A stretch of DNA of 64,000 nucleotides from Patescibacteria group bacterium (lineage in GTDB: Bacteria > Patescibacteriota > Patescibacteriia > SBBC01 > CAIJZX01), in NCBI GenBank assembly GCA_038065275.1, contig JBBTRH010000013.1:32106-96105 (forward strand). The letters are read 5' to 3'. The position numbers were made by a program, and so were the translations under genes. The notes below the pieces were generated by a model. The model saw nothing but the letters and a program-made list of their open reading frames with translations, was not told the origin of the DNA and did not search any database. Numbering within the stretch: position 1 is the stretch's first letter; each line of letters begins with the position of its first letter. Shown one piece after another: positions 26,791-52,725 of the stretch.

Positions 26791-28208
26791 AAAAGTTTCT
26801 CAATTTCGGTCAACATTACCGAAATATGACTCTCCGTATTTTGCATTTCTTTTAATAGCCCCTTAGGAGTTTTATGATCGGTCGCAATTCCAGCGACCGG
26901 ATTCTTACAATCCAAATTGTAATTCCGCTTCTGAATTTCTTTGATCGACACTTTCCACGCATGCTCATTCGTTTTCCGATTCTTCCACCATACCTTCACT
27001 GGTTCAAACTCTTCGCTTCGGATCGGCCGTCCTTTCGTGTATTGCTTCATGCCTTCTGGCAACGGCAATTCGTAGTACCAAATCTCTTTGGTCGGCGTGC
27101 CTTTTTGGAAAAACAGCAGATTCGTATTGACGCCAGCATACGGATTAAAGACGCCTTGCGGGAGACGAACGATCGTTTGGAGATTACATTTTTCGAGAAG
27201 CTCCCGTTTAATTGCCGTTTTCACGCCCTCGCCAAAGAGCGTTCCGTCGGGCAGGACAATCCCCGCTCGGCCGGTTGGCTTCAGTAAATTCATGAACAGC
27301 ACGAGGAAAAGGTCGGCGGTTTCTTTCGTCCGAAATTCGCGCGGGAAGTTCTGCTCGGTGCCATCCTTTACATATCCTCCAAACGGTGGATTTGCAAGGA
27401 TAATATCAACACGGTCTTTTGGACCATACTCGCGCAATGGCTTCGAGAGGGCATCGCCACGATGAATCTGGTCAGGCGCTTCAACGCCGCGCAGAATAAG
27501 GTTTGTCACCGCGAGCGTAAACGGGAGTTGCTTTAATTCGTTCCCATGCAGCGATTGTTGCAGACGCTGCTCTTCCTTGCGCGTTTTGACCTGGGTACGA
27601 ATATGTTCAAGAGCACTGACAAGGAATCCGCCAGTCCCACAGGCCGGATCGAGAACGATTTCACCGAGCTTCGGGTTAACCATCTCAACCACAAATTTTG
27701 TAAGCGCTCGTGGAGTATAGAATTCTCCGTAGTTTCCAGCGCTTTGCAGCTCCTTGAGGAGATGTTCGTAAATATCATTGAACTCGTGTCGGTCCCCTTG
27801 CTTATTAAAATCGACTTCGTTCAGTTTATTGACGACTTGCCGGATGAGCGTTCCGGACTTCATGTAATTATAAGAGTCAGCAAAAACCTCTTTGATCAGG
27901 AGACCACGCGTGTCGTCGGTTGCGACCTTTAGATCTTTTAATCCGGGAAAAAGTTGATTGGTAATAAAATTCAACAAGTCGTCACCAGTTATTCCTTCCG
28001 GATCTGCGGCCCAGTTTCGCCAGCGAAGTTTTTTTGGAATTGCTGAAACATACTTCGGATTAACGAGTTCAGCAAATGTTTCTTGATCATCAATAATTTT
28101 CAAGAACAACATCCAGACGAGTTGATTCAACCGCTGTGCGTCACCGTCGACGCCCTGGTCTTTCCACATAATGTCTTGTATCGCCTTGATAACGGCTTGA
28201 AGTGACAT
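26787..28208 (-). CDS. hsdM: type I restriction-modification N6-adenine DNA methyltransferase HsdM
   Basis: Motif I LDPACGTGGF and motif IV LANPPFGG. HsdM N-terminal domain. Confidence 0.92.
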   Translation of the reverse strand: MSLQAVIKAIQDIMWKDQGVDGDAQRLNQLVWMLFLKIIDDQETFAELVNPKYVSAIPKKLRWRNWAADPEGITGDDLLNFITNQLFPGLKDLKVATDDTRGLLIKEVFADSYNYMKSGTLIRQVVNKLNEVDFNKQGDRHEFNDIYEHLLKELQSAGNYGEFYTPRALTKFVVEMVNPKLGEIVLDPACGTGGFLVSALEHIRTQVKTRKEEQRLQQSLHGNELKQLPFTLAVTNLILRGVEAPDQIHRGDALSKPLREYGPKDRVDIILANPPFGGYVKDGTEQNFPREFRTKETADLFLVLFMNLLKPTGRAGIVLPDGTLFGEGVKTAIKRELLEKCNLQTIVRLPQGVFNPYAGVNTNLLFFQKGTPTKEIWYYELPLPEGMKQYTKGRPIRSEEFEPVKVWWKNRKTNEHAWKVSIKEIQKRNYNLDCKNPVAGIATDHKTPKGLLKEMQNTESHISVMLTEIEKLL

Positions 28209-28211
28209 AGA

Positions 28212-30569
28212 TTAGGCGTAGAGTGTTTCTTGAATTTTGTTGATGACGACGAAGTATTGCTCTCGACCACCGAAGATATCATTCACGATTTGCACCGGCG
28301 TGCCGAATGATGTAAACGGCGACACCTCAAGGTCTTTAATATCATCAATCGCCGTGATGCCTTGATCTTCATATTTCTCGAGTAAGGCATCAATCACCTC
28401 GCGGGCTTTCCCTTCGTACTTCGCAAAGTAATCGAGCTTCTTCACATTATTCGCCCGTTCTTTCCGGGTCAGCGGCGTTTTTCCGTACGCAACGTGACAA
28501 ATGAGGTCAAACGGGTCCAGACCTTTGCCAACTTCAGCTGCGATGTCATCAAAGAACACACCCCGTTGTTCAAGTTCGGTGATGATCGCCTCTTTCTTGT
28601 CAGCTTTTGTCCAGGCAGTCAAAAACTCATCAAGCGATCGATATTCTTTGAGGATATTCTGTTTCGTGTAATCCTTCAGCGATTCCGTAATGAGCTTCCC
28701 ATCTTCACCAATATACTGAACGCGTTCGTTAATCACCTGAACCGGAACGTCGCGCACTACGTACTTTTTGACTGGCTCACCGCCAATCGGGGGCCATGGA
28801 CTAATAAGGGTACCTCCTGGTTCTTGCCCGGGTGTCCCTGTACCTCCGTTCTCCGGGGGTTCTACTGGCGGAACAATTGGATCTCCTCCTTTGGGCTCGT
28901 AAATAACAACTGGATCACCGTCAAAGTCAGGATCGGCAAACAGTTCCGTCACGCCCCGGAAGTCGAGAATCGTAAAGAATAGTTTTCCGTAATCTTCGCG
29001 CACACGGGTGCCGCGTCCGATGATCTGCTTGAATTCGGTCATGGATTGAATATTTGCATCCAGGACGATCAGCTTGCACGTCTGCGCATCGACGCCCGTG
29101 GTCATCAGTTTTGATGTCGTGGCAATCACCGGGTATGGACTTTCTGGATCGATAAAGTGGTCAAGTTCACCAGCCGATTCTGGGTTATCGCCCGTAATCC
29201 TGACGACGTAGCGATGATTTGCTCCAGCGAGTTCCGGGTTCGCGTTGACGAGCGCCTGTCGCATTCGTTCAGCGTGATCGATGTCGACGCAGAAGACAAT
29301 AACTTTCTGCATCGGATCGGTGGCCTGCATGTATTCGGTAATCTTCTCGGCCACCAGTTTCGTCCGCTCATCAATCACCAATTCTCGATCAAAATCTTTT
29401 CGGTTGTAGATACGATCTGGAATCTCATTCCCATGAACATCCGTCTTTCCTTGTTCTGGGCGGTAGCCCTCAACATCGCGATCAAACGTCACACGTATGA
29501 CTTTGTACGGCGCGAGAAATCCATCATCAATGCCCTGGCGGAGTGAATAGGTATAGATTGGTTCACCAAAATACGTTTGGGTCGAGATATCTTTCGTTTC
29601 TTTCGGCGTAGCTGTTAACCCAATCTGGGTCGCGCTTTGGTAGTAGTCTAAGACATCGTGCCACAAGGCATTTTCCCGTGCGCTGCCGCGATGGCACTCG
29701 TCGATAATGACGAGATCGAAGAAGTCAGGTGAAAACTGCTTGAACGTCTGTTTCTCTTCTTCAACTCCGGTCACGCTTTGATACAGCGCGAGATATATTT
29801 CGTAGGATTTATCTGCGTTGCGATTTTTGATCTTGTACATCTTATCGCCAAACGGCTTGAAGTCGTTCATGACCGCTTGGTCAGCTAAAATGTTCCTATC
29901 CACGAGAAAGAGGATGCGTTTGGCTGTTTTTGCTTTCCATAACCGCCAGATGATTTGAAATGCCGTATACGTTTTCCCCGTTCCGGTCGCCATAACCAAC
30001 AGCAAGCGTTTTTGCCCTTTCGTAATTGCTTCGATGGTTCGATTAATGGCGACGCGTTGAAAATATCGCGGCTCTTTTCCGTTCAGCTCCTGGAAGTAGT
30101 CTTGTTCAACGATCGATCGGGCGTCTGAAGTAATTTGATGGTTGGCAAGATACTGCTGATAGAGGTCTTCCGGACTTGGAAATGCATCTAAAGCGATTTC
30201 TTCTTCGTGCACTTTTCCCTTCGGAAGACGAACGTGGGTTAAGAATCCGCTTCCGTTCGAACTGTAGACGAAAGGAATATCAAGCACATCTGCGTAGCCG
30301 AGGGCTTGCTGCATTCCATCACCCACGCCGTAACTCGCATCTTTCGCTTCAATGATTGCCAATGGGAGATTATTTTTGTAGTAAAGAATGTAGTCCGCGC
30401 GCTTTTTTTCACCTCGTGTCACGGTTTTACCACGAACAATGATCCGGCCAGCGGTGAACGAAACCTCTTCCCGAATTTGGGTCTGCAAATCCCATCCAGC
30501 TTTTACCAAAGCAGGGGTTATATATTTCGTACAAATATCGCGTTCGGACAATGATTCTTTAGCCACCAT
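28212..30569 (-). CDS. hsdR: type I restriction endonuclease subunit HsdR (compact form)
   Basis: N-terminal PD-(D/E)xK (AIIEAKDA). SF2 helicase motifs MATGTGKT and IIDECHRG. Pro/Gly-rich linker before the C-terminal domain. Confidence 0.9.
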   Translation of the reverse strand: MVAKESLSERDICTKYITPALVKAGWDLQTQIREEVSFTAGRIIVRGKTVTRGEKKRADYILYYKNNLPLAIIEAKDASYGVGDGMQQALGYADVLDIPFVYSSNGSGFLTHVRLPKGKVHEEEIALDAFPSPEDLYQQYLANHQITSDARSIVEQDYFQELNGKEPRYFQRVAINRTIEAITKGQKRLLLVMATGTGKTYTAFQIIWRLWKAKTAKRILFLVDRNILADQAVMNDFKPFGDKMYKIKNRNADKSYEIYLALYQSVTGVEEEKQTFKQFSPDFFDLVIIDECHRGSARENALWHDVLDYYQSATQIGLTATPKETKDISTQTYFGEPIYTYSLRQGIDDGFLAPYKVIRVTFDRDVEGYRPEQGKTDVHGNEIPDRIYNRKDFDRELVIDERTKLVAEKITEYMQATDPMQKVIVFCVDIDHAERMRQALVNANPELAGANHRYVVRITGDNPESAGELDHFIDPESPYPVIATTSKLMTTGVDAQTCKLIVLDANIQSMTEFKQIIGRGTRVREDYGKLFFTILDFRGVTELFADPDFDGDPVVIYEPKGGDPIVPPVEPPENGGTGTPGQEPGGTLISPWPPIGGEPVKKYVVRDVPVQVINERVQYIGEDGKLITESLKDYTKQNILKEYRSLDEFLTAWTKADKKEAIITELEQRGVFFDDIAAEVGKGLDPFDLICHVAYGKTPLTRKERANNVKKLDYFAKYEGKAREVIDALLEKYEDQGITAIDDIKDLEVSPFTSFGTPVQIVNDIFGGREQYFVVINKIQETLYA

Positions 30570-33127: not shown

Positions 33128-34333
33128 CTAGTAATCCCTCAACTTCTTCATGTGTTGATGCTGTTGGATTTTCTCCAGCGCTTTCGATTCGATCTGACGG
33201 ATCCGTTCGCGCGTCACCCCGAACTCCTGGCCGACTTCTTCCAGCGTGTGCGCCACGCCGTCGTTTAAGCCAAAACGCATTTCCAGAATTTTCTGTTCGC
33301 GCGGACTGAGCGACTCAATGATTCGGCGCACGTCGTCCCGCAACAGCTGGAGAGCCGCGACTTTGTCCGGCGACACCGTCTTGACGTCCTCGATGAAGTC
33401 GCCGAGCGTCGAGTCCTCGTCGTCTTCGCCGACTGAGGTTTCCAGCGAGACGGTGTCCTGGGAAATTTTCATGACGTGGCGTATTTTGTCGATCGGCTCG
33501 CCCATTTCGGCGGCGATTTCTTCCGGCAGCGGCTCCCGGCCGAGGTCTTGAATCAACTGCCGCTGGATTTGCTGAAATTTATTGATCGTCTCGACCATGT
33601 GGACCGGGATGCGGATGGTCCGCGACTGGTCAGCCAGGGCGCGGGTGATGGCCTGGCGGATCCACCAGGTGGCGTAAGTCGAGAACTTGTAGCCCTTGCG
33701 ATAGTCGAATTTTTCCACCGCCCGAAACAGGCCGATATTCCCTTCTTGAATTAAGTCCAGCAACGACAGCGAGCGGCCGGTGAACTTCTTGGCGATCGAG
33801 ACCACCAAACGCAAGTTGGCTTCCACCAGGCGCTTCGAGGCTTCAACGTCGCCCGCTTCTTTCCGCTTGGCCAGCGACACCTCGTCTCCGGCCGTCAGCA
33901 ACGGCACCTTGCCGATTTCCCGCAGGTACATTTGGATCGAATCATTGGAGATGTCGCCCAGGTCGAAATGGCGCTCGTCGAGCGGCAAATGCTTCTTGGA
34001 ATGGCTGGACTCGAGGAAAGCCGGCTTGATCGGCTCGAGGATACCGCCAGCGCTTTCGACGATCTGGATGCTGTGTTTTTCGAACTCATCGAGGGCCGCT
34101 TCGTACTGGTCGATGTAGGCTTCCAGGTCGGGGAAGGCGTACAGCAGTTCCGTCTCCGTCAGGAACCCGCGCTGGCGGCCTTTGCGGACCAGCTCACGAA
34201 CCGTATCCAGCGGAACGACGGGGACGGCGGCGCGTTTACCGCGCTTGTCCGCTTTCAATGTTTTAGCGCGCCGAACCGGCGGACGTCTCTTTATCGGCGC
34301 TCGCTTGACGCGCTTGGTGGTTTTCTTAGGCAT
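33128..34333 (-). CDS. rpoD: RNA polymerase sigma-70 factor RpoD (primary sigma)
   Basis: Regions 2-4 conserved ([40 protein letters not shown]). Downstream of dnaG. Confidence 0.93.
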
Positions 34334-34440
34334 CCCGTTAGAAGTAAAATAAATCAGGTTGACTAGCTATTCGCCAGTTGGTTTCATCCACCGTCCCATT
34401 ATTGGTACACCCAAGTTCAATTACTTCTAACGGGAGCATG
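34334..34440. repeat. long inverted-repeat element (CCCGTTAGAAGTAA ... TTACTTCTAACGGG) abutting the rpoD start codon
   Basis: 14-bp arms read directly. Flanked by CATG on both sides. Confidence 0.8.
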
Positions 34441-34617: not shown

Positions 34618-36459
34618 CTAGGCCAGCGACCGAAGTTGGTCGGTCACGGCCTGGACTCGGGCCAGCAAGTCGGTTAGTTGGCTGGCGTCGGCGCCGTCCA
34701 GTACCGGACGGTTCTGGGCGCCGCCTGATTGTTCCAGGCGGCGGATGTCGGCCTCGAGCCGACGGAGTTCGAGCGATAGAGCGCGCCGTTTCAGGGCCGC
34801 TACCATCGTTAAAATATCGTGTTCGACGCTCGGCGTAATGCCCGTCGGGTACTCATGGTCCCCGCGGAGGGTTAGAAGCGTAAACAGCTCCTGTTGTTCC
34901 GGGTCGAGTGACGATGCTTGATCCGCCAGGGCCTGGCGGGTAGAAAAGTGTTTTTCACTATACCAGATGACCAGGGTCTTGTACAGGGTTTGCAGGTCGG
35001 GGCCGACGAGCATGTCCGGATCGAACTGCCCGGACAGTTGGTCAAGAAGCTTCGGCTCACGCAGGAGGAGCGCGATCAATCGCTCCGACACCGCCCGAAA
35101 TCGATCCGTCCGCCGGTCGGGGGATTCCGCCGATTCCTTGACTGCGCTCGATGTCGCGACCGGCGCCGCCTTCGGTTTCGCCGACATTGATTGGCGGAGG
35201 ACCGCGACATCAACCCGCACCAGGTCGGCCAGGTGCTGGAGATAATGGGCCTGTTCGACCTGATCGCCGAGCTGGGCGATGATCGGCAGGAGGAATTTCA
35301 CTGCGGCCTTCTTATCGTCGACTTTGTTCAGGTCGCGGCCGCTCGTCGCTTCCTGGACGTAATACTCCATCACCGGCTGAGCCGCAACAATCGCCTTCTG
35401 CCAGGCCGGCAAGTCATGGCGGATGAGCTCGTCCGGATCTTTCCCCTGGCTCAGCCGCACGATGCGAACGTCCATCTTGGCCAGTAAAGCTTGATCGACG
35501 CCGCGGAGCGCCGCCTGAGCCCCGGCCGCGTCCTGGTCGAATGCTAACACCAGGTTTTGTGTGAATCGTTTCAGGAGTTGCACCTGATCGGCGGTCAAGG
35601 CGGTGCCGGATGAGGCCACCGCGTTGTTCACGCCCGCTTGGTGCGACATCAGGCAGTCCATCTGTCCTTCCACCAGCACCGCCCGGCCGGCGCGCTTGAT
35701 GTCCTGTTTCGCTTTGTCGAGCGCGTAGAGCACCCGACCTTTGTCGTAGACGATGGTTTGCGGCGAATTGATGTACTTGGCCGGGACCGGTCCTTGAGGA
35801 TCGATCAGCACCTCGAGCACCCGGCCGCTGAAACCGACCACCGTTCCGTGGACATCGCTGATCGGGAACATGATCCGGTTGCGGAAGCGGTCGTAGAAGC
35901 CGGCGCCGCGGTCTTTACGGATCGTTAACCCGGCTTGGAAAATATCATCGTCGGCAAATCCTTTTTTCTTAAGCGCTTGGTAAGTAATGTCCCATCCGGA
36001 CGGCGCGTAACCGACTCCGAAATCTTCAAGTGATGTTTCATTAACTTGCCGCTGGGCCAGATATTTTCGCGCCGGTTCAGCATCGGAAGTTTTTCGCAGT
36101 ACCTCTTGGTAGTACCGACTGACCCACCGCAGGACGTCAAGAACTTTCGTTCGCTGGGTTTGCTCCTCTTTGTTGTACTCGCGGAGCTGGACACCGGCGC
36201 GTTTGGCTAAGAGCCGCAGGGCTTCCGGAAAATCCAAACCTTCCTGCTCTTGGACAAAGGTGAAGATATCGCCGCCCTTCCCGCAACCGAAACAGTGCCA
36301 CGACCCCCGCTCCCGCGAGACCATGAACGACGGCGTCTTCTCGTTGTGGAACGGGCACTTGCCCTTCCAATTCGATCCGGCCGCTTTCAGCGGCACCGAC
36401 TCGCTGATGAAGTCAACGAGGTCGAGGCGCTGTTTGATATCCTCTACTGGAGTTGGCAT
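34618..36459 (-). CDS. dnaG: DNA primase DnaG
   Basis: CHC2 zinc finger CPFHNEKTPSFMVSRERGSWHCFGCG. TOPRIM domain. Confidence 0.93.
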   Translation of the reverse strand: MPTPVEDIKQRLDLVDFISESVPLKAAGSNWKGKCPFHNEKTPSFMVSRERGSWHCFGCGKGGDIFTFVQEQEGLDFPEALRLLAKRAGVQLREYNKEEQTQRTKVLDVLRWVSRYYQEVLRKTSDAEPARKYLAQRQVNETSLEDFGVGYAPSGWDITYQALKKKGFADDDIFQAGLTIRKDRGAGFYDRFRNRIMFPISDVHGTVVGFSGRVLEVLIDPQGPVPAKYINSPQTIVYDKGRVLYALDKAKQDIKRAGRAVLVEGQMDCLMSHQAGVNNAVASSGTALTADQVQLLKRFTQNLVLAFDQDAAGAQAALRGVDQALLAKMDVRIVRLSQGKDPDELIRHDLPAWQKAIVAAQPVMEYYVQEATSGRDLNKVDDKKAAVKFLLPIIAQLGDQVEQAHYLQHLADLVRVDVAVLRQSMSAKPKAAPVATSSAVKESAESPDRRTDRFRAVSERLIALLLREPKLLDQLSGQFDPDMLVGPDLQTLYKTLVIWYSEKHFSTRQALADQASSLDPEQQELFTLLTLRGDHEYPTGITPSVEHDILTMVAALKRRALSLELRRLEADIRRLEQSGGAQNRPVLDGADASQLTDLLARVQAVTDQLRSLA

Positions 36460-36543
36460 GCCACATTAGAAACTACCTAAATGAGAAGCTATTTGCATAT
36501 GTATCGATTACCTTCGCCCCCATAGGTTTCTAACGGGGCATGG
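36460..36543. repeat. long inverted-repeat element (CCACATTAGAAACTACCT ... AGGTTTCTAACGGGGCATGG) abutting the dnaG start codon
   Basis: Imperfect arms (CCACA vs CCCCG). Same family as the others. Confidence 0.7.
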
Positions 36544-36643: not shown

Positions 36644-39600
36644 TTATTTGTTTAGCTTATCAATCTCCCCCATTATTCGTCCGGTTTCGAGTAGCGCCAC
36701 GATCATCTGCTGATAATGCTCAATGTCTTCGTTGGTCAGGGTACGGCCTTTGCGGTCTTTCAGCCACTTTTGCGCCGGTTGATACCCGCCGATATAGAAA
36801 TTCCATGCTAATTCAGGAACTTGGCCGAAATACTGCTCGGTATTAATGAACACTTTGTTGTCTTTGTATGCTATTTTCTCGACCATATCCGATCCGGTCG
36901 CCGGATAGGTTGTAATGAATTTATTCACCTGCGGCGATTCGAGCAGGTGGAGCAACCGCAATTCGGTCCCTAGTGCTACTAGTTTTTTGAAAGTTATTGC
37001 ATCTTTCGGATACGGTACTCTAGGAAAATCAATCTTTAGAAATTCTTTGTATTTATCGCGATAACTCGGTGAGTGTAAAACGGCGTAAATATAATCAAGG
37101 ATATTTTCCGGCGTTACTTTACCGACCCTTTTTTCTATATCGCTAACAATTTCTTTTATTAGATTTGGTGTTTTTGTGCCATCTTCATAATAGAGGTACA
37201 ACGGAAAAAAGCGAGAATTATCAAAAGGAGAAATGGCGTCTTTGTCTAGTATCTTGTTAGAAACAAAAACATTGTTCACGTTCCCTCTGCGCGAGTTTCT
37301 TACTGTAATCAATGAGAGATTTGCATTCAACATGCTTTTCATTAAAGGAGATCTCGGGTAGGCCATGAAACCCTTTGTTTTTCCGGAATAATAGGTAAAG
37401 CGTTGTTCAAATGGATGATAGGTAACCTGCACGATTTGGCCTTTCCCCCCTTGAACATCTTCCCTAGCTAGATTAACCGTCCAATCCCTTCCATCGTCAG
37501 CTATATCGTATTTGGATCGTAGTTCTTTTATTTCAAGGTTGGTAAAATCGTTCAAAACATTGGCAATCTCATTGTTAGTAAATTGATATACCAGACCATC
37601 TCGCTTAGTTTGTATTCCAGAGTTAAATTCATTAAAAACTTCGTCGATTTTCAATCCTTTTCGATATTCTTCTTCATCGTTAAAATCTTTCGGCACAAAG
37701 AAATAATTCGGCTCCGGACAATCGAGTTTTACCCATTTGAGATTTTTAATATCGCTTTCATTAAGCTTGGTGAATTTATCTTCCCGCTTACCGTAAATTT
37801 CCGCGTGATGAACCTGGCCAAGGCCGGTTTTCTCTTTCGCGGTGCGGACAAAGATGGATATCGCGACGCCCTGCTGGATGTCGAACACGTTCTCGTCTTG
37901 TCCCCCGTCCGGAGCTTGTTCTTTCTTTTTGGAGTTGCCGTGCAAGTCAAGAATGTAAACATCGTCAAATGTTTCCAACAGGTGCTTTCGCATCTGGCGG
38001 TGCGTAATGCCGTCGATATAGGAATTATTGGTGATCATGGCGACGACGCCGCTCTTGTTTTTCTCGATAAAATGTTCGGCGTAGCGAATAAACTTAATGT
38101 AATCGTCGTCCAGGTTGATTTTCCGCTCGCCTAGTCCGCGTTTATAGTCCTGGATCAAATTCTGTATCCACGCGCCCTTGTTCGACGAGCTGACGCTGTA
38201 CGGCGGATTGCCGATAACCACCATGATCGGTGTGTCGTTCTTGATGACCGCCGCGCTTTTCGCTTCCTCGGCGATCGCGCCGCCGAAACCCAGGCTGAAG
38301 ATTTCGCCCTGGGGTTTTGGATCCTCAAGCGAATTCGTGAGAAATACTTTCAGGCGGGTCTTGCCGTTTCGTGTTTCATTAAAGTGCTTGAACCCGGTAT
38401 CCCGCAGCTTCATGCTGATCTTGAGGTGCGCAATCGTATATGGCACCATCATCAGCTCGAAGCCATGCAATCGTGGTAGTAGCTCATGGTGTACATATGA
38501 CGGCCAGCCGCCGCCTTGCCCGTGTTCCTGATACGCCTGGTATATCTTGTCGATCGTGGCGCTGATGAACGTTCCGGTGCCCGCCGCAGGATCAAGGATT
38601 TGTACCTTATGCTTCCCGTCATCTAGCTTAGCTGTATCCGCCAAGCCCCGCGCCAAGCCGAAATCCCGGCGCAGAATCTCGTCAACAGAGCGGATGATGA
38701 AATTCACGACCGGCAGCGGCGTATAGTACGCGCCCATCCGTTTGCGTAAGACAGGATCGTATTCTTTTAGGAAGTCCTCGTAGAAATGAATGATCGGATC
38801 GGCGTCGTCCAGAAACTCCTCGACCAGTTTCTTGATATCGGCGTGCTGGAACACCTCGCAGAGCTCGTCCACAATGTAGCCGAGCCGCTTGTCGAAATTT
38901 ACCCCGGCGATATGGTCGAAGAATTGTTTTAGGAACGGATTCGACGCGGGCACCAGCTGGTCGGCTTCCTGTCGCGAAAACGTGGCGGGAGTTTCATCGT
39001 TATACCGCGCCGTGAACAGTCCGTACACCAGGGTCTGGGCATACATGTCGGCAAACGCGTCAATGGTCAGGTCGTGGACCAGCATTTTCTTGATCGCTTC
39101 GTACAACTGCATAATTTCCGTGTTTTTTTCCGATTCATGCGACAGAAACTGCCGCGCGTTGTCGCGAATGCGCTGACCTTTGCCGCCCATGATCTTAGCC
39201 AGGTGTTTTCCCGATTTGATCGGTTCTTTGTGCGACTGCGCGAAATCCACCGAGGTTTTCGCCAGATGTTCGTACTCGGCCGGAACTGGCGTGATGGTGC
39301 GCTGTTTTAGGTCGTGCTTCGCGATTACGATCGGCTCTTCATACCGCAAGCCGTTGCGATAAAAACGGAATTCGACATAATCCGTCAGCACCAAATTGGC
39401 GTAGCCGTAATATCGCGCCATTTGTTCCGACTTTTCGATTTTATCTAGCGGCACGCCGATATCTTTAACCTCAATGTACAAAATCGGCACGTCGTGGCTG
39501 AGCACAACAAAATCAGGTTTATTGCCCTGTCGAGCTTTCGCGTCATGCAAAATATGGACATTTTTGACCGCGGCAAAAACCTCTTTTAGCAGAGTTTCGA

Positions 39601-39688
39601 AATCAGCGCGGTAGCCCATTTCGCTCGTTTCTTCGCGCGCGAACTTGGCGGCCACGGACTGCAGGTACTGTTCAAACACATTCGACAT
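36644..39688 (-). CDS. type IIG restriction-modification enzyme (MmeI-like fused endonuclease / N6-adenine methyltransferase / TRD)
   Basis: N-terminal PD-ExK (PDFVVLSHDVPILYIEVKD). MTase motif I ILDPAAGTGTF and motif IV VIGNPPYS. 1014 aa. Lower GC than the flanks. Confidence 0.8.
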   Translation of the reverse strand: MSNVFEQYLQSVAAKFAREETSEMGYRADFETLLKEVFAAVKNVHILHDAKARQGNKPDFVVLSHDVPILYIEVKDIGVPLDKIEKSEQMARYYGYANLVLTDYVEFRFYRNGLRYEEPIVIAKHDLKQRTITPVPAEYEHLAKTSVDFAQSHKEPIKSGKHLAKIMGGKGQRIRDNARQFLSHESEKNTEIMQLYEAIKKMLVHDLTIDAFADMYAQTLVYGLFTARYNDETPATFSRQEADQLVPASNPFLKQFFDHIAGVNFDKRLGYIVDELCEVFQHADIKKLVEEFLDDADPIIHFYEDFLKEYDPVLRKRMGAYYTPLPVVNFIIRSVDEILRRDFGLARGLADTAKLDDGKHKVQILDPAAGTGTFISATIDKIYQAYQEHGQGGGWPSYVHHELLPRLHGFELMMVPYTIAHLKISMKLRDTGFKHFNETRNGKTRLKVFLTNSLEDPKPQGEIFSLGFGGAIAEEAKSAAVIKNDTPIMVVIGNPPYSVSSSNKGAWIQNLIQDYKRGLGERKINLDDDYIKFIRYAEHFIEKNKSGVVAMITNNSYIDGITHRQMRKHLLETFDDVYILDLHGNSKKKEQAPDGGQDENVFDIQQGVAISIFVRTAKEKTGLGQVHHAEIYGKREDKFTKLNESDIKNLKWVKLDCPEPNYFFVPKDFNDEEEYRKGLKIDEVFNEFNSGIQTKRDGLVYQFTNNEIANVLNDFTNLEIKELRSKYDIADDGRDWTVNLAREDVQGGKGQIVQVTYHPFEQRFTYYSGKTKGFMAYPRSPLMKSMLNANLSLITVRNSRRGNVNNVFVSNKILDKDAISPFDNSRFFPLYLYYEDGTKTPNLIKEIVSDIEKRVGKVTPENILDYIYAVLHSPSYRDKYKEFLKIDFPRVPYPKDAITFKKLVALGTELRLLHLLESPQVNKFITTYPATGSDMVEKIAYKDNKVFINTEQYFGQVPELAWNFYIGGYQPAQKWLKDRKGRTLTNEDIEHYQQMIVALLETGRIMGEIDKLNK

Positions 39689-40384: not shown

Positions 40385-40768
40385 TCAGGTCGAGATGAAC
40401 GGCGGGGTGGCGGCGGGAACGGTGTCCGCGGACGGCGCGGCGATCGGAGTCTGAAGGCTGATCGCTTCGATCTTGTCCGGCAGTTCGTCGACCGTCCAGC
40501 CATCAGCCAGGTTGGGCGGCGCATACTTCGCCAGGACCGAGCGCGCCGATCGGCGGCACTCGGCCAACTTGCGCTGGAGCACCGAGCTGTGCGGATGAAG
40601 CTGGGCCAGGTGGACAGCCCGCAGATAACACCGCAGGGGACCCGCTTGCTGGCCTTCGATGGCCGTCAAGCGAATGCTCAGCATGCGGCTGAAACCAGCC
40701 GACTGCAACAGGGACTGGGTGCGGCCGATCCGCTGTTCGAACTCGTCCGGACCGTTCTGGGTGTCCAT
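40385..40768 (-). CDS. hypothetical protein (coding strand ambiguous; an overlapping plus-strand ORF exists)
   Basis: 127 aa ORF with protein-like composition. The opposite-strand ORF 40232..40939 is Arg/Gly low-complexity. Confidence 0.25.
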   Translation of the reverse strand: MDTQNGPDEFEQRIGRTQSLLQSAGFSRMLSIRLTAIEGQQAGPLRCYLRAVHLAQLHPHSSVLQRKLAECRRSARSVLAKYAPPNLADGWTVDELPDKIEAISLQTPIAAPSADTVPAATPPFIST

Positions 40769-40871
40769 GTTGACTACCCTCCGTGCAGGTCAACACCGAT
40801 AAGAATGGGCGGTACGACGCCGACCACAAAGCCGACGCAATGGACGTACCCTACCCGAAGTACGTTGCGCT

Positions 40872-40992
40872 GTCAACCCAGCACCACCCAGCACCACTTT
40901 TGTCTAGTTTTAGCGTGCGTTAGGTATCTTGCTTTCTAAGTATAATGAGTTTTTCTGTGGCAAAAAGCAAGGAAAAGTGGTGCTGGGTTAAC
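40872..40992. repeat. MITE-like element copy 1 (TIR GTCAACCCAGCACCAC...GTGGTGCTGGGTTAAC; internal 10-nt duplication CCCAGCACCA)
   Basis: About 93% identical to copy 3 at 50404..50514. Right end fuses to a CCCCGTTAGAG half-site. Confidence 0.75.
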
Positions 40993-40996
40993 CCCG

Positions 40997-43009
40997 TTAG
41001 AGCCGTCGGTCAGCCGACCGGCTGAGTTGCCTTGCCCCTGCCAGGGGGCTGACTGCCCCGCCGGCGGCTCGCAGGTCAGTGACCGCGGCCGGCGGCGTGA
41101 CGTCGACGCTCAAGAGGAACAACGCGTCGGATGAGTTTGCCGTGACGCTGGTCGCCACGGAACCGTCATTCACCTCGGGCGCCGCCGTCCCCAGGATTTT
41201 TTGATAGGGTTTTTCCAGCGTCACCGTCTGCGGCGCGGCTGACGGATTGACCAGCACCGCGCCGTGATCGAAGTCGCGCCGGTAGACGTTAGTCAGCCCC
41301 GTTTGGAAATGCACGTCATCGAGCCAGACGGCGCCGGCCGCCGCCGCCAAGTCGAAGCGGACCGTGGCGTTGGCGTTTGCGGTTGACGGCGTCAGCGGCA
41401 GTTGATACTGTCGCCATGCGGTCGTGATCGGCAGGCTGACGGTGCCCGCTCCGCCGGTGTCAAGCACGAGGTCAATCGTCCGCGCCGCCGAGGCTTTAGC
41501 CCAGAACGTCAGGCCGTAGGTCAGCCCGGCGGTGACGGGAAAAGTGTCAGTCGCCGCGACCGAGGTGAAATTGTGGAACGAGCTGCTTTGACCGACGTCG
41601 GCGCGGAGACTGCGAGCGCCGACTGCTACGGTCGAATCATCAGTCGTGATCGTCGACTGGGTCGCGGGGGCCGTGACCGCCGTCCAGCCGGCCAGCCCGT
41701 TTTCGAATCCGTTATTCGCTGTTATCAAGTCGGCGGCCGGATTAAGCCAGACCATCTGGTAAGCCTCGGTCGTCGGTTGTCCGAGCCAACCGGTATCGCT
41801 CGCATTCGTGGTCGATCGGCCGGTCGCCAGGTTAACGGCGTATTCGTCATACCACCATTGATCGTACCGGAAGCCGTTGAGGCGCGGGTCCGTGACGCGA
41901 GCGCCGTTGCCGAAAAAACTGAATCCCGCTCCGAGTGAAGCGCTACCCAACCCAAAACGTTCCAGTCGGCGGTCGATCGCCGTGGTCCCGGTCGTGGAAG
42001 CGGCGTTCGATGAGATGAAGTTGTATTGCGGAGCTCGATAGCGGAGTTTGTCTTGAAAGTAGCCGCCGACTGGCCAGTACATGTTCGTGTACCAGGTCCC
42101 GCCCTCTTGTTGGGGGAAATACTCCTGCATCCAGCCGTTAAACGATCCATAGAGGCGGGGCGCGCCGGGAGTGCAGTTGCCGCTGATGATGAAATTCGGG
42201 TCGTCGATCAACGACCGGACTGTCTCTCCGAGAATGGTCTGCCCGTTGGTCCAGCCCTGAAAGAATTCCGCCGCCGAAACGTAACCGGCGCGGACGTAGT
42301 CAAATTTCTTGGTCGGCGTTTCGATCCACGGAATATCCGGGCAATAGACATCAAGAAACAGGCCGTCCCAGAGCCGCTGGCCAGCCGCATTGCGGGCATT
42401 GGCGACGGTGCCGGCCATCAGCTGGGCGATTGCCGCCGCCGTGGTGTAGGTGTATGAACCGTCCGGATTTTGAATCCGTTTAGCCAGATTGACGTTCACC
42501 AGATCGGCGTCGGTCGAGTGAATGCTCGGGTCGGCCGGCGGGTCGCTTTGGTAGTAGAGCCAACTGGCGTTCGGGCCGGGCGTCGGTCCCGCCCCGTCGT
42601 TGATCAACGTCCAGTACTGCTTGAACCAAGTGGATGAGTCGTAGTTGCCATACCAGATAAGGTGACCCAAAACATAGGCCAAGAGCTTGATCGCGGGGTT
42701 TCGTTGTCGCAATTGGCCGATCACGTCGGGGCGCAGATCAGTCAGCGGCGTGGCATCGATCGTCACCAACTGGTATTTCGCCGTTTGATCCAACGTTGAG
42801 GCGTTGAGCGTGCCGTCGTCGTTGAGTAGCGGCCAGCCCGAGGCCCGCACGCTGTCGTAGAGCCCCAGCCGCGGATAATTCAACTCTCCGCCCGCCGACA
42901 CCGGACCGGCCTGGACAATCGGGGTTTGGTGTGTACCGCTGATCAGCCACGCCGCCAACCCAAGCAAGCCAGTGATGATTACAATCGGGACGCGCAGTTT
43001 TATCGACAT
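40997..43009 (-). CDS. secreted putative glycoside hydrolase-like protein with C-terminal carbohydrate-binding-like domain
   Basis: Signal/TM at the N-terminus. Trp/Tyr/Gly/Asn-rich composition typical of TIM-barrel GH-like enzymes. C-terminal NGFENGLAGWT block resembles CBM4/9. No catalytic motif assigned. Confidence 0.4.
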   Translation of the reverse strand: MSIKLRVPIVIITGLLGLAAWLISGTHQTPIVQAGPVSAGGELNYPRLGLYDSVRASGWPLLNDDGTLNASTLDQTAKYQLVTIDATPLTDLRPDVIGQLRQRNPAIKLLAYVLGHLIWYGNYDSSTWFKQYWTLINDGAGPTPGPNASWLYYQSDPPADPSIHSTDADLVNVNLAKRIQNPDGSYTYTTAAAIAQLMAGTVANARNAAGQRLWDGLFLDVYCPDIPWIETPTKKFDYVRAGYVSAAEFFQGWTNGQTILGETVRSLIDDPNFIISGNCTPGAPRLYGSFNGWMQEYFPQQEGGTWYTNMYWPVGGYFQDKLRYRAPQYNFISSNAASTTGTTAIDRRLERFGLGSASLGAGFSFFGNGARVTDPRLNGFRYDQWWYDEYAVNLATGRSTTNASDTGWLGQPTTEAYQMVWLNPAADLITANNGFENGLAGWTAVTAPATQSTITTDDSTVAVGARSLRADVGQSSSFHNFTSVAATDTFPVTAGLTYGLTFWAKASAARTIDLVLDTGGAGTVSLPITTAWRQYQLPLTPSTANANATVRFDLAAAAGAVWLDDVHFQTGLTNVYRRDFDHGAVLVNPSAAPQTVTLEKPYQKILGTAAPEVNDGSVATSVTANSSDALFLLSVDVTPPAAVTDLRAAGGAVSPLAGARQLSRSADRRL

Positions 43010-46780: not shown

Positions 46781-47377
46781 TTAGTGTTTCGATTGACGAA
46801 TCAGGGTGATGATCAAGACCGTACTGACCGCCGCCAGCGCGGCCAGGACCGTCGTCAGGACGGTCTCGACGATGATCAGCAGGCCGTTGGTGATGGTCGG
46901 GTTAAGGATATACTTGCTGACCGAGGCGGCCAAGCCCAGGCCAATGCCAGCAAAGACGCCAGTGGTCAAGCTCTCGACTTTTCCGCCGTCCCGCCGCGCC
47001 ACCAGCCAAGCCAGGCCGATGACCGCTAGCGCTTCGACGGCGACGATCAACTCGCGGCGCTGTTGGGCAAGGACCAGCAGAGCGACGAGTAACATGGCGC
47101 CGATCATCCAGCGGCGAATCAGCCCGACATACCGATCGACGCTCCATTTTCCGATCATCGCCCGGGTCGGCGGTAACGTCTGGGTATCGGTCATGGCCGC
47201 AGTATAACATCTTTTCGGCTCAATTTCAACGCGTAGCCCAGCACCACTTTGGCTCCAATAATGTCTTATACCATATTCATGTTTTATGAAAAAACAGCAA
47301 TACCGTATATCTCCGTGAATCGACCAAAGTGGTGCTGGGTTGACAACGCCGGTAACCGGCGATAGAGTCAGCCACAA
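46781..47377 (-). CDS. integral membrane protein of unknown function
   Basis: 198 aa with about 5 hydrophobic helices. Confidence 0.45.
   Translation of the reverse strand: MWLTLSPVTGVVNPAPLWSIHGDIRYCCFFIKHEYGIRHYWSQSGAGLRVEIEPKRCYTAAMTDTQTLPPTRAMIGKWSVDRYVGLIRRWMIGAMLLVALLVLAQQRRELIVAVEALAVIGLAWLVARRDGGKVESLTTGVFAGIGLGLAASVSKYILNPTITNGLLIIVETVLTTVLAALAAVSTVLIITLIRQSKH
47227..47345. repeat. MITE-like element copy 2 (shares only the ~20-bp termini CCCAGCACCACTTTGG...CCAAAGTGGTGCTGGGTTGAC with copies 1 and 3; unrelated AT-rich interior)
   Basis: Termini read directly. Left end has a 5-nt insertion (TCAAC-GCGTA-GCCCAGCACCAC). Confidence 0.6.
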
Positions 47378-47409: not shown

Positions 47410-47934
47410 ATGGCTAAGACCACGTTTGACGCCTATGGCAATGACCCGTGTATGCCGCTCATTACCACCCAGCAACTGGCGGAAGTCTTCTGCCGATCGT
47501 TCGCGCGGTCGGACACGGAAGCCGTCGAGCGGATGATCGACCGCGAATTGACGCATGACCACCGGTACATCCTCGGGCGCGTCGATGAACGACTCGCCGG
47601 TTTCGTCAGCTGGCGTCGCTGGGGGGAAGACCGGCACCGGTTAGCCGAGCTTTTCCATATCGGCGTCGACCTTGCCAACCCGGAGGCATCGGGGCTTGGA
47701 CGCCAGTTGATCGGCGCGATGGAAGAAGACGTCCATGCCTACTTTCGTCTTCACGGTCAGCTCGGAGGGCGGAAGATCTTCATCCTGACCCACGCCGACA
47801 ACTATCGCGCCCATAACCTCTACCGCCGGTGCGGGTACCGGCACCAGGCCACGCTGCCGGCATTCTTCCACTCCCGCATCGACGCGGTCAGTACCGGCGA
47901 GGAGTATTACTTCGCCCGGGATTTCCCCGGGTAA
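47410..47934 (+). CDS. GNAT-family N-acetyltransferase (probable)
   Basis: Acetyl-CoA-binding-like segment HIGVDLANPEASGLGRQLIGAMEE and C-terminal NLYRRCGYR. Likely start is MAKTTF at 47410 rather than 47380. Confidence 0.5.
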   Translation: MAKTTFDAYGNDPCMPLITTQQLAEVFCRSFARSDTEAVERMIDRELTHDHRYILGRVDERLAGFVSWRRWGEDRHRLAELFHIGVDLANPEASGLGRQLIGAMEEDVHAYFRLHGQLGGRKIFILTHADNYRAHNLYRRCGYRHQATLPAFFHSRIDAVSTGEEYYFARDFPG

Positions 47935-48227: not shown

Positions 48228-49895
<1,668 letters not shown>

Positions 49896-50222: not shown

Positions 50223-50304
50223 ATCCCGTTAGAGACTTAGTTCAATAAGATGTTGTGCCCCATCAGGTTACCCTTTGACGAAGGGGTCTCTAACGGGACA
50301 TGGG
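50223..50304. repeat. long inverted-repeat element (TCCCGTTAGAGAC ... GTCTCTAACGGGA) abutting the groES start codon
   Basis: 13-bp arms read directly. Lies in the groES leader between the CIRCE operator and the ATG. Confidence 0.8.
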
Positions 50305-50373: not shown

Positions 50374-50400
50374 TTAGCAGTCTACAGGATAGAGTGCTAA
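50374..50400. promoter_or_regulatory. CIRCE operator (HrcA binding site) TTAGCAGTC-N9-GAGTGCTAA
   Basis: One mismatch to the TTAGCACTC-N9-GAGTGCTAA consensus. About 150 nt upstream of the groES ATG. Abuts MITE copy 3, whose terminus gives a TTGACA on the groES-sense strand. Confidence 0.7.
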
Positions 50401-50403
50401 TCT

Positions 50404-50514
50404 GTCAACCCAGCACCACTTTTGTCTAGTTTTAGCGTGCGCTAGGTATCTTGCTTTCTGAGTTTAATGAGTTTTTCTGCGGCAATAAGCGAGGAAAAGT
50501 GGTGCTGGGTCAAC
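50404..50514. repeat. MITE-like element copy 3 (TIR GTCAACCCAGCACCACTTTTG...GGAAAAGTGGTGCTGGGTCAAC)
   Basis: About 93% identical to copy 1. Internal hairpin CTTGCTTT...AAAGCAAG and a TATAAT hexamer. Confidence 0.75.
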
Positions 50515-50667: not shown

Positions 50668-51411
50668 ATGTCCAACCAGCCCGACACGCGCAGTCCTGAT
50701 TTGCTGGCCGGAATTCCCACCGAATTCACCACGGTGGCTGGCGCAGCTAACATGATCGCTAAGATGGCTCAGATCAAAGCGCTTCGCCCAACGGCCGAAC
50801 GCTGGTTCCAGCGGTACGACTTGCCGGTGCAACTTGATCTGATCCGTAGCCTGCGGCAGGATTCGACCTCGGCCCGGGAGCTGATCTACTTGGTGCCCGA
50901 TGCCAAGGTGTTCCTGACCCGGCTCGAGGTACCGTTCCTGCGTCGTTTGTGCGACGAGCGCGGTGCGCTGATCGCTGAGCTCACCCCGGTACAGTTGCTC
51001 ACGCTTCTGCGGTCGGTCAACAACGACGAGGCGCGACTGGCTTGGCTGACCATGATCTGTGACGCCTTCCAGGAGCACGAGGATCGTTTTCTCGACTTCC
51101 TCGACGGGATCGAGGTGGCGGAGGTTGCGGCCTGGTACTCGGTCTTGATCGCAGAGTGGGACGAGGAACTGTACGTCAGTGCTGAACAGGACCCGAAGAC
51201 CTTCGAGCCCTACTTCCACGACGGCTTTGAGTTCCTGATGGCCTTGTACGAGTGCCGGCCGGAGCTCTACCGTCAGGTCGTCAAGAACATCATGCTCGAC
51301 ATTCGCGCCGATCACGAGGCAACCAGCTTCAGCCAGTCCGAGGAGGAAATGCGGCTGACCTGGAGCGAATACACTGACGATCTGGTTGCGACTGACGACG
51401 GCCAGGAGTAA
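50668..51411 (+). CDS. hypothetical protein (acidic C-terminus), first gene of a two-gene operon of unknown function
   Basis: 247 aa. No motif recognised. High GC, strongly protein-like codon usage. Confidence 0.5.
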   Translation: MSNQPDTRSPDLLAGIPTEFTTVAGAANMIAKMAQIKALRPTAERWFQRYDLPVQLDLIRSLRQDSTSARELIYLVPDAKVFLTRLEVPFLRRLCDERGALIAELTPVQLLTLLRSVNNDEARLAWLTMICDAFQEHEDRFLDFLDGIEVAEVAAWYSVLIAEWDEELYVSAEQDPKTFEPYFHDGFEFLMALYECRPELYRQVVKNIMLDIRADHEATSFSQSEEEMRLTWSEYTDDLVATDDGQE

Positions 51412-51420
51412 GGAGACGCC

Positions 51421-52725
51421 ATGATTACCACCCGTGCAATATCGGCGGCCGTTCCCGAGGAACGGCCGCCGACGTACCTCGAGCTTGTCCTTCGTCGAGC
51501 GATCGACCTCGGACTCGCTCCGTCCACCGCCGCAGTCACGTTCGATCAGAAGATCATGGAACTGGCCGAGTTGGTGGCCGATTCTGCCACCAGTAAGACC
51601 TCGCCGACCGACGAACAGATTCGCGGTGCCATAGTGATCGTCATGACTCGGCTGGCGTACGCCCTGCGGTCCCGGGCGGGATCCGATCTTGACCAGGCGG
51701 CCCACGTTCTGGCCACGCAACCCTACGACGAACTCCTCGCCACTGGCCGGGAGATCGAGCAGAACTTCAAGCTAATGGTCGAAGGGCTCAAGAGCGCGGC
51801 CTTCAAAAAACTGCGCCGCTTGTCGGTCGAGTATCGCGCGGATACATCCCTTCTCGAATACACCGACGAGTTCGGTATCGAGTGGGTGGGCCACTACGCT
51901 TCCTCGAAGAGGGGGCGACAAGATTTCACCGAGGCCACGCTACGGTTGATGAAGATGCGGCATATGATCGAGATCGGACGAGTTTTGGAGGAAGCTCACC
52001 CGTCCTTCTTCAACCAGCACTACCGCGGTCGGTATGACCAGTGTCTCGGTAACCTGGCGGTCAATCTCGCACTACATCGGGAATTGACGACTAGGGTCAC
52101 CGTCAGTGAGATTCGTCACTTTCTCATGCGGTTCACTACTGAGACTGTCGACGCAACCTCACTCGACCAAATTGGCCAGATGCTAGGTGACCATCTCCGC
52201 TGGAAAGGCATCAAAATTGACACCTACGAATGGTTCATCGGCTGGATCTGGCCAGGATTGACGAGCTACTGGCGGATGATGGCGACATTCCCAGTTACCT
52301 ATGCCATCTGTGTCGCCAGCGAGACGTTCATTCCGGATCGTCCGTCAAAGCCGGAAACGTTGACCTTCGAGCGGGTAACGTCGACCGGCGTCAAGGACCT
52401 AGCGGAGGTATTCATCCGTATTTCCGTCAAGGACCAGTGCGAGGTCGTGCATGACCTTGATGGGCAAGTGGTGTACGTGCTTCTTCTCCGGTTGAACGAG
52501 ATGAACGGAGAGGAAGCGGTGGCGGAATTCCTCGAGAAGGCTCGGCGAGAAGACGTCGCTAAAGCACTGGCTTTCATGCCGTCGTTCAGCGTCGAAGACC
52601 TCGTCCACCCGCGGCCGGAACTCCCGGATTGGCTCAAGCTCGCAATCGAGCACCTCCAGGAAAAACCACCCCGTCGACTCGTTCTCGAACGGATGATCAC
52701 CAAGCTACGTCAACGTACCCCTTAA
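51421..52725 (+). CDS. hypothetical protein, second gene of the operon
   Basis: 434 aa. Starts 9 nt after the upstream stop. No motif recognised. Confidence 0.5.
   Translation: MITTRAISAAVPEERPPTYLELVLRRAIDLGLAPSTAAVTFDQKIMELAELVADSATSKTSPTDEQIRGAIVIVMTRLAYALRSRAGSDLDQAAHVLATQPYDELLATGREIEQNFKLMVEGLKSAAFKKLRRLSVEYRADTSLLEYTDEFGIEWVGHYASSKRGRQDFTEATLRLMKMRHMIEIGRVLEEAHPSFFNQHYRGRYDQCLGNLAVNLALHRELTTRVTVSEIRHFLMRFTTETVDATSLDQIGQMLGDHLRWKGIKIDTYEWFIGWIWPGLTSYWRMMATFPVTYAICVASETFIPDRPSKPETLTFERVTSTGVKDLAEVFIRISVKDQCEVVHDLDGQVVYVLLLRLNEMNGEEAVAEFLEKARREDVAKALAFMPSFSVEDLVHPRPELPDWLKLAIEHLQEKPPRRLVLERMITKLRQRTP

Follow-up and report, generated by a model that had tools for sequence, protein, structure and literature searches.

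Short inverted-repeat elements beside promoters in a Patescibacteria genome are probably non-autonomous relatives of a small GIY-YIG nuclease-encoding element

Three copies of an inverted-repeat element lie against promoters

The 64,000-nucleotide (nt) stretch of Patescibacteria DNA analysed here (assembly GCA_038065275.1, contig JBBTRH010000013.1; hereafter the window) contains three copies of an element of roughly 100 nt whose inverted terminal arms lie beside the -35 hexamers of promoters. [quoted passage not shown] The G+C content of the window is about 55%, which is unusually high for a bacterium of the candidate phyla radiation (CPR). Its GroEL (48228-49874) has a fully identical counterpart in a metagenome-assembled genome labelled Patescibacteria group bacterium, the next protein relatives are those of Candidatus Kerfeldbacteria (88%), and sequence identical to the window is present in assemblies from Hainich groundwater.

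A first-pass annotation, made from the letters of the sequence, had described a MITE-like element in three copies. A search of the window for the 16-mer CCCAGCACCACTTTTG, allowing up to three mismatches, recovered six matches to this A-type arm, compared with a mean of 0.54 in shuffled sequence (none of 100 shuffles reached six). The six sites form three inverted pairs (40887/40972, 47237/47324 and 50409/50494), which upholds the placement of all three copies. The elements and their immediate flanks are as follows.

40873-40876: left flanking 4-mer of copy 1, TCAA, part of a minus-strand -35 TTGACA
40877-40987: copy 1, A-type without an ORF, ends CC...GG; 111 nt, of which 10 nt are a terminal duplication; arms at 40887-40902 and 40972-40987
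40877-40886: 10-nt tandem duplication of the left terminus of copy 1 (CCCAGCACCA), a 10-column gap in the alignment with copy 3
40988-40991: right flanking 4-mer of copy 1, TTAA, identical to the left 4-mer at three of four bases
40992-41002: solo B-family arm (CCCGTTAGAG) adjoining copy 1; its TAA (minus strand) serves as stop codon to a 670-amino-acid (aa) ORF, 40997-43009
47237-47339: copy 2, A-type, 103 nt; CTTTGG arm variant, unrelated interior
50405-50408: left target duplication of copy 3, TCAA, part of the groES -35 TTGACA
50409-50509: copy 3, A-type, 101 nt, 93% identical to copy 1
50510-50513: right target duplication of copy 3, TCAA, a perfect match to the left

The window copies are 101-111 nt in length and have perfect 16-nt arms and no conserved ORF, and the gap from arm to arm is 71 nt in copies 2 and 3. 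Alignment agrees with the original description in that copies 1 and 3 share 93% identity across 107 nt, copy 2 has the arms alone in common with the other two, and copy 1 carries an additional 10-nt duplication, which may be a by-product of end processing. A mirror-image 10-nt terminal duplication (GGTGCTGGGT) occurs at the right end of the element in L042, whose genome is unrelated to that of the window. The fusion of the right end of copy 1 with a half-site of a second repeat family is likewise present, and the arrangement TCTAACGGGG-T(T/C)(G/A)ACC-CAGCACC that it creates recurs in L041, L094 and L105. Other details required revision. The GTCAA/TTGAC that had been taken as the element terminus is flanking target DNA, the real ends being CC...GG; folding predicts the internal hairpin (CTTGCTTT/AAAGCAAG) for copy 1 and a weaker one for copy 3; and the TATAAT hexamer, which reads TTTAAT in copy 3 and is missing from other family members, carries no weight.

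All three copies are intergenic, as had been proposed, but their position is described more exactly by promoters than by gene ends, each copy abutting the -35 hexamer of an outward-facing promoter.

40876..40871, minus strand: -35 of the promoter of a 127-aa gene (40385-40768), TTGACA-17-TAGGGT, abutting copy 1
47201-47229, minus strand: promoter of a 137-aa gene, TTGAAA-17-TATACT, 8 nt from the other end of copy 2
47340-47368, plus strand: promoter of a GNAT acetyltransferase gene (47410-47934, Pfam GNAT), TTGACA-17-TAGAGT, 10/12 matches in a promoter scan
50374-50408, minus strand: groES promoter, TTGACA-18-TAGACT, with the -35 at 50408..50403 abutting copy 3

In the GNAT promoter, the -35 TTGACA follows the terminal GG of copy 2 without a gap. 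Target duplication, together with the CC/GG ends of the element, rebuilds the -35 box beside it, and as judged from these hexamers the promoter would survive next to all three window copies. The groES promoter overlaps an inverted repeat, TTAGCACTC-N9-GACTGCTAA, that resembles CIRCE and was left intact by the insertion; we take it to be CIRCE from established knowledge of the HrcA operator.

Related genomes retain uninterrupted sites

The groESL neighbourhood was compared with those of L114 (GroEL 95% identical), L115 and L117 (90-91%), and L118. The groES promoter and its CIRCE-like repeat are conserved in L114, L115 and L117, as is the promoter of the 127-aa gene; both promoters are uninterrupted there, with a single TTGA at the position where the window has TTGA-element-TTGA, and the empty groES site reads GTTTGACAGGTTAGCACTC in L114. 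Homologous promoters of the 137-aa gene are found in L115 and L117, and no A or B arms occur in the 12-21 kb searched in each of L115, L117 and L118. Since close relatives keep the same promoters uninterrupted, the window elements were inserted and are not ancestral. Copies 1 and 3, so similar in sequence, occupy the -35 boxes of two different genes, reflecting spread within the genome.

Copy 2 has an orthologue in L114 (9058-9160), located beside the same TTGACA. The two interiors show weak similarity (~55% identity), and only in opposite orientation: the alignment score is 7 when one is inverted and -3 when compared directly, against a null of -13 (standard deviation 4.2). Either the interior was flipped between the arms or two independent insertions took place.

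A second family has the same ends and target

The sequence CCCGTTAGA, which defines the B-type family, occurs 12 times in the window against 0.43 expected, almost always as inverted pairs 64-92 nt apart. The following members were delimited.

2603-2701: B-type, arms CCCCGTTAGAGGTGA; flanks TCAA and TTGA, each adjoining an outward promoter-like site
11065-11142: B-type; flanking CATA duplicated
34334-34435: B-type, at the rpoD start codon; GCAT duplicated at 34330-34333 and 34436-34439
36461-36538: B-type with a degenerate left arm, at the dnaG start codon; CATG duplicated at 36457-36460 and 36539-36542
50224-50298: B-type, arms TCCCGTTAGAGAC, at the groES start codon; an upstream copy of the 5' untranslated region and ATG is homologous to L117
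55507-55607: B-type, arms CCCCGTTAGAGGCGA; perfect TTGA duplication; right flank TTGACG-17-TAGGGT

In both their CC...GG ends and their target, the members at 55507-55607 and 2603-2701 match the A-type elements. It had been remarked from the outset that both families begin with GTCAACCC, a likeness attributed either to a shared mobilisation mechanism or to a shared -35-like TTGAC, and both suggestions proved sound. The families begin alike because the TCAA/TTGA target and the terminal CC are common to both; each has full-length forms bearing a GIY-YIG gene (see below), and the TTGA is the duplicated target within real TTGACA -35 hexamers.

Where B-type elements lie at the starts of groES, rpoD and dnaG (genes assigned by Pfam), a 4-mer containing ATG is duplicated, and relatives read straight through the site; the uninterrupted rpoD start in L115 and L117 is ATGCCTAAG. 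At the window rpoD, the original ATG opens a 34-codon frame that passes through the element and ends at a TAA in the right arm, 4 nt before the duplicated ATG. A candidate third family, consisting of inverted pairs of GCGGCGCGGCG at 55229/55317 and 62310/62398, was rejected because both pairs lie in coding sequence, one of them in ORF 61677-63470, which we take to be uvrC from a weak GIY-YIG match (E 0.024) and the presence of UvrC nearby in relatives.

The A-type family is widespread among Patescibacteria

A scan in which each species was represented by one genome, and two arm cores had to lie 60-88 nt apart, revealed at least 112 further loci with A-type arms. Among the loci listed, the hosts are nearly all Patescibacteria from many classes (Kerfeld-, Komeili-, Kaiser-, Doudna- and Saccharibacteria, Paceibacterota and others); a few host metagenome-assembled genomes (MAGs) carry the deposited labels Thermodesulfobacteriota or Gammaproteobacteria, which are labels only. 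Ends, lengths and targets were tabulated for 128 distinct copies. Copies terminate in C-C...G-G, with a subfamily that has T-C...G-A instead, such that arms start CCCAGC or TCCAGC. Measured from CAGC to GCTG, lengths form a sharp peak at 95-102 nt. There are also mini-hairpins of 34-48 nt that consist of arms alone. Interiors are unrelated (12 similar pairs among the 128 copies) and arms are kept, which bears out the early suspicion that the termini are what is propagated.

Identical 4-mers flank 43 of the 128 copies, compared with a mean of 6.5 and a maximum of 16 in 2000 permutations of the flank partners. These flanking 4-mers are direct rather than inverted repeats (39 versus 2), with TTGA...TTGA and TCAA...TCAA each found nine times and TCAA...TTGA twice. 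Within the window, the duplication is perfect for copy 3 and extends to three of four bases for copy 1. The insertion target can be summarised as a 4-bp T-N-N-A, mostly TTGA/TCAA or TTTA/TAAA and often embedded in GG-TNNA-CC, the empty form being GGTTGACA. Among 246 outward flanks, 31 start with TTGA, 22 of these continue to TTGACA, and TAnnnT follows 16-18 nt downstream in 26 of the 31; by their hexamers and spacing, these flanks are sigma-70 promoters, and the upstream edge of the -35 box is precisely where the element lies. The TTTA of GGG-TTT-ACC, the Gly-Phe-Thr codons at the cleavage site of type IV prepilins, is a second frequent target. Further insertions occur in a 16S rRNA gene (L043), in 23S rRNA genes (L134, L135) and around a tRNA (L060). 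Sites in putative RNase P RNA genes (L033, L052, L064) were judged from the GGAGGAAAGTCCG motif only, and the Rfam scan gave no RNase P match in L033.

Several of these loci have unusual arrangements. In L060 (763-864) a whole tRNA gene, its CCA encoded, lies between the arms (ARAGORN, Rfam), and in its transcript a 16-bp leader/trailer stem would form; an origin of the ~71-nt interior from tRNA was considered and discarded, as a tRNA is present in this 1 of 129 elements only. Three elements are packed into the putative RNase P RNA gene of L033 (7413-7824), three element size classes lie in the 5' region of the 23S rRNA gene of L135 (515-850), and L096 (895-1140) contains element arrays, tandem or nested, that are interrupted by an assembly gap (a run of N).

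The stems show covariation. Inner positions are Watson-Crick paired in 92, 80 and 57% of copies, compared with 54, 30 and 28% when partners are shuffled, and the variable inner positions use all four pair types; the two central bases of the target are, if anything, anti-paired. Because the inner stem positions vary yet stay paired, the pattern points to a hairpin, of single-stranded DNA (ssDNA) or RNA, as the likely active form, rather than to two duplex protein-binding sites.

No A-type element was found in 2.9 million viral contigs. Among 953 ORFs from 113 loci, no recurring neighbour transposase was found, and only pilus genes and housekeeping clusters recur; an apparent cluster of GIY-YIG genes among the neighbours turned out to be the pilin cluster, joined through a single fusion ORF.

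The same arms enclose a GIY-YIG nuclease gene

Small GIY-YIG ORFs between inverted arms were initially seen at three loci: L072, which has A arms; L063, with the variant arm CCCAGCACCTTGTTTG; and L076, with B arms (CCCCGTTAGAGGTT...AACCTCTAACGGGG). Variant arms also surround a GIY-YIG ORF in P0142 and P0188. L076 is a contig from the MAG of the relative whose GroEL is 95% identical to that of the window organism, and in this element the left arm provides a Shine-Dalgarno-like AGAGG and the right arm provides the stop codon. When metagenomes were scanned for A arms 255-285 nt apart, 24 of 26 loci enclosed a GIY-YIG ORF of 82-99 residues. The enclosed ORFs score 52-65 bits against Pfam PF01541 (cut-off 22.6), which covers nearly the whole protein with no other domain; no NCBIfam family is above cut-off for them, and a search of the PDB returned only the structure-selective nuclease Slx1 and UPF0213 proteins, with E ~1e-3. 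Homologues are annotated as 'GIY-YIG nuclease family protein' in many CPR groups, and in those inspected the arms differ along with the protein (TCCAGCACCTTTTG; CCCCTCACAACTTTT). A tblastn search of PLSDB gave no plasmid-borne nuclease.

One pair of elements connects the long and short forms directly. In L143, a short copy (2391-2489) lies 100 nt from a long element (1982-2293), of which it retains the 5' untranslated region, the initial five codons and the 3' end; it is a plain internal deletion of its neighbour. The interiors of the other short copies have only chance-level similarity to long elements.

Long elements also occupy host genes. Five are located in 23S rRNA genes (L119, L122, L131, L134, L139). 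In L123, L128, L130 and L132, the GIY-YIG reading frame continues across the right arm (K-S-G-A-G) into F-T-L-I-E, so that each of the four pilin-gene fusions is a single ORF in which the N_methyl prepilin motif comes after PF01541, and short copies in pilin genes (L009, L045, L051, L113) supply a start codon and a leader of ~20 residues. The reading frames at pilin genes and at rpoD suggest that host genes may stay expressed after insertion. A survey of CPR rRNA genes describes, in its main text, GIY-YIG ORFs in insertions that are not introns, together with many insertions that lack an ORF and are uncharacterised, most of them <200 bp (Tsurumaki et al., 2024, PMC11270868). The former are very probably the long elements seen here in 23S rRNA genes, and the latter fit the short forms in L043 and L135. 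The main text of that survey does not contain the words inverted repeat, palindrome, hairpin or pilin (PMC11270868).

Small GIY-YIG genes were also encountered in other contexts (L038 2840-3330, L162, L163). In one, the gene lies inside a tRNA gene whose 5' half is duplicated; in another, a '23S rRNA intervening sequence protein' (PF05635) gene stands on either side and different 17-nt inverted repeats are present.

Comparison with known hairpin-repeat and mobile systems

By analogy, the family would belong with GIY-YIG nucleases that are paired with hairpin repeats, the closest known system being Ssn (SsnA of Neisseria meningitidis, cd10448, with its NTS/SRM repeats). Ssn enzymes are single-domain GIY-YIG proteins of ~94 aa whose own gene is flanked by the ssDNA hairpin repeat to which they bind and next to which they cut (PMC11893778), and the insertion-sequence-like layout of repeat, gene and repeat was remarked upon by their discoverers (Chenal et al., 2025, PMC11893778). 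Both systems comprise a single-domain GIY-YIG protein of ~90 residues, a gene bracketed by short inverted-repeat DNA that is also scattered through the genome in many copies, and a hairpin, which is recognised in Ssn and whose pairing in the CPR family is under selection. The architecture differs in that Ssn has a self-contained hairpin repeat of 20-50 nt on each side of the gene, whereas a single arm of the CPR family forms no hairpin and the arms pair across the ORF or across ~71 nt of filler. Behaviour differs as well, since the Ssn paper describes no target duplication, target preference, ORF-less ~100-nt class, insertion polymorphism or Patescibacteria (PMC11893778).

The REP/REPIN-RAYT and IS200/IS605 systems are similar in their non-autonomous palindromic doublets, which form a long hairpin, and in single-strand hairpin recognition; REP sequences are also very numerous and tied to one small nuclease-type gene flanked by repeats. 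However, RAYT is a Y1 (HUH) transposase and the CPR arms enclose a GIY-YIG nuclease, REP sequences carry a GTAG or CGTC tag in place of the CCCAGC/TCCAGC arm start and are species-specific, whereas the CPR arms are common to several classes, and IS200/IS605 elements have neither target duplications nor terminal inverted repeats. Correia/NEMIS elements of Neisseria, RUP, ERIC and the Rickettsia palindromic elements resemble the short form in size (~100-150 nt), inverted termini and short target duplication. Like it, classical MITEs and the Rickettsia palindromes reside next to or inside genes, can supply or rebuild promoter hexamers, and are tolerated in coding and RNA genes through folding or read-through. 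Classical MITEs differ in that their parents, where known, are DDE-transposase insertion sequences and in that their interiors are common within a family; we know of no classical MITE from a ~310-bp parent whose sole gene is a GIY-YIG nuclease. GIY-YIG homing endonucleases (I-TevI, T4 Seg) share the catalytic domain and a choice of conserved host landing sites (rRNA, protein motifs), but they have a separate DNA-binding domain and >=200 aa, compared with a bare catalytic domain here, and homing copies into the same locus by recombination with no target duplication or inverted repeats, in contrast to CPR copies at many unrelated loci. A literature search for the arm sequence produced chance primer matches only.

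Interpretation and alternatives

The initial description of the window copies as MITE-like is supported in the operational sense: the family has inverted repeats, a 4-bp target duplication, many copies, presence/absence differences, a coding sibling and one deletion derivative. The enclosed enzyme is not a recognised transposase. In the explanation that we favour, the complete element would be ~310 bp in length and consist of two inverted arms of 16-20 nt with CC...GG ends and one gene of 82-99 residues for a single-domain GIY-YIG protein, and the ~100-nt form would result from internal deletion that removes the nuclease gene and keeps the arms. The arms may pair in ssDNA into a hairpin, which a GIY-YIG nuclease, acting in trans from a full-length sibling elsewhere in the genome, would recognise and cut at its foot, in the manner of Ssn nucleases on their hairpin repeats. 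Repair and ligation by the host would then finish the insertion at a staggered 4-nt break. The three window copies most likely have no function of their own at their present sites and persist where they are harmless.

A number of observations weigh against this explanation. The perfect 4-bp duplication is present in only about one third of copies, and copy 2 has none. The 64-kb window contains no GIY-YIG gene of this kind, so that the trans partner in this organism is assumed. To our knowledge a hydrolytic GIY-YIG nuclease has no strand-transfer activity, which leaves integration and duplication unexplained, and the palindrome could carry the nuclease as cargo and not be mobilised by it. In addition, neither independent deletions nor neutral decay predicts the tight length of ~100 nt, and the arms are perfectly conserved across deep CPR lineages in which the interiors are saturated; both features hint at an added constraint or function.

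A further proposal, which we advance tentatively and with less than even confidence, is that the ~310-bp form is autonomous, and hence the smallest self-mobilising bacterial DNA element described, moving by way of a single-strand hairpin and having evolved to land in conserved motifs where the host gene is spared. The notion of sparing follows from the rebuilding of the -35 TTGACA, the duplication of the start-codon ATG, and the encoding of Lys-Ser-Gly-Ala-Gly by the right arm in pilin genes. In the pilin genes, the nuclease would be translated as an N-terminal 'leader' of the prepilin, from which the host prepilin peptidase could release it.

An unlikely alternative is a domesticated host system, in which the arms serve as sites for an Ssn-like ssDNA nuclease that controls incoming or single-stranded DNA, for example during pilus-dependent uptake, with promoter copies marking or protecting genes. 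It would account for the perfect conservation of arms over deep lineages with interiors free to vary, for the strong link with type IV pilin genes, and for the location of window copies beside groES and other housekeeping promoters, and it has a parallel in NTS/SsnA of Neisseria, where transformation is modulated by Ssn hairpin repeats that are concentrated near certain genes (PMC11893778). A marking role is nevertheless hard to see for copies in rRNA loops, start codons and pilin ORFs, and target duplications together with empty sites in close relatives signify recent insertion, not conserved placement.

We give very little credence to the view that the element is a promoter-proximal operator or UP-like site for a transcription factor, with the ~71-nt spacing reflecting DNA looping, even though 3/3 window copies, and about one copy in four overall, touch a -35 hexamer and the arm spacing is constant. 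This reading was rejected since relatives keep the same promoters intact without the element and identical arms are found inside 16S and 23S rRNA genes, around a tRNA and in coding regions; moreover, the flanks carry target duplications and the arms also enclose a nuclease gene. The chance that the element acts as a small structured or cis-acting RNA hairpin (a processing site, stabiliser or terminator), which the first-pass annotation had entertained, is equally slight. Its predicted hairpins are stable (z-scores -3.6 to -7.3), pairing in the stem is compensatory, and the stems in rRNA genes resemble intervening sequences excised by RNase III. Yet Rfam gave no match for the elements at gathering threshold in a scan of the whole window, and nothing relevant at E <=10 around copy 1, the interior is not conserved, and the element is symmetric, forming the same hairpin from either strand. 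The window copies also lack the T-run of intrinsic termination, and copies 2 and 3 lie upstream of promoters, outside the adjacent transcripts.

An invertible switch, or inverton, with the arms as recombination sites and the interior flipping to toggle a promoter or start codon, has a lower probability still. The L114 orthologue resembles copy 2 only when inverted, and the interior in pilin genes supplies a start codon and leader in one orientation only, but independent insertions in opposite orientations explain the single L114 case. No invertase gene is nearby among the ORFs scanned, 71 bp is very short for recombinase-mediated inversion, and the target duplications, rRNA insertions and nuclease-bearing form do not fit. 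Finally, integron attC sites marking gene cassettes, suggested by a length of ~100 nt, an imperfect palindrome with a variable centre, AAC/GTT-like ends and patchy GC across the window, can be dismissed as having a negligible probability, because the core sites R'' (RYYYAAC) and R' (GTTRRRY) are expected to be inverted and the flanking 4-mers are direct, the spacing is 3-9 kb with housekeeping neighbours (groESL, PEP synthase), no integrase is present among the ORFs scanned, and copies occur inside rRNA genes.

If the favoured explanation of a mobile palindromic element with a GIY-YIG-bearing full form is true, it would tie together two puzzles in the literature, the insertion-sequence-like layout of Ssn genes and the CPR rRNA insertions that are either non-intron with a GIY-YIG ORF or short and ORF-less, as one mobile element with defined ends, target and derivatives. 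A streamlined genome of ~1 Mb would then tolerate about one insertion per 6 kb, as the motif that is hit (a -35 hexamer, a start codon or a prepilin cleavage site) is rebuilt on insertion or the element folds as a hairpin. For the annotation of CPR genomes, such elements would account for unusually long pilin leaders, rRNA and RNase P models that come out fragmented, and spurious ORFs. Pairs of nuclease and arm would also be candidate tools for sequence-specific cutting of ssDNA, as has been proposed for Ssn enzymes.

Other features of the window

A LOOT RNA (RF03000) was detected at 21603-21724 on the plus strand, with 80.9 bits against a gathering threshold of 46.4; it is intergenic and adjoins a low-GC block (37-49%) at 22825-30569 that encodes a PD-(D/E)XK nuclease and a type I restriction-modification system (HsdS, HsdM, HsdR) and is probably an acquired defence island. 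A Type ISP restriction-modification enzyme of 1014 aa (36644-39688, minus strand; 40% GC) is encoded just upstream of dnaG, and at this position L115 and L117 have NUDIX or inositol-phosphatase genes instead. Between groES and a PMT-family gene, the plus strand at 50668-52725 contains two genes (247 and 434 aa) without Pfam matches, together with a promoter of their own (TTGACA-16-TAGAGT); the corresponding interval is ~115-180 nt in L115 and L117. A GC-rich, internally palindromic repeat of 58 nt (CCGTCCCGCC...GGCGGGACCGG), unrelated to the A and B families, is present at 9052-9109 and 63579-63636, the two copies being 86% identical.

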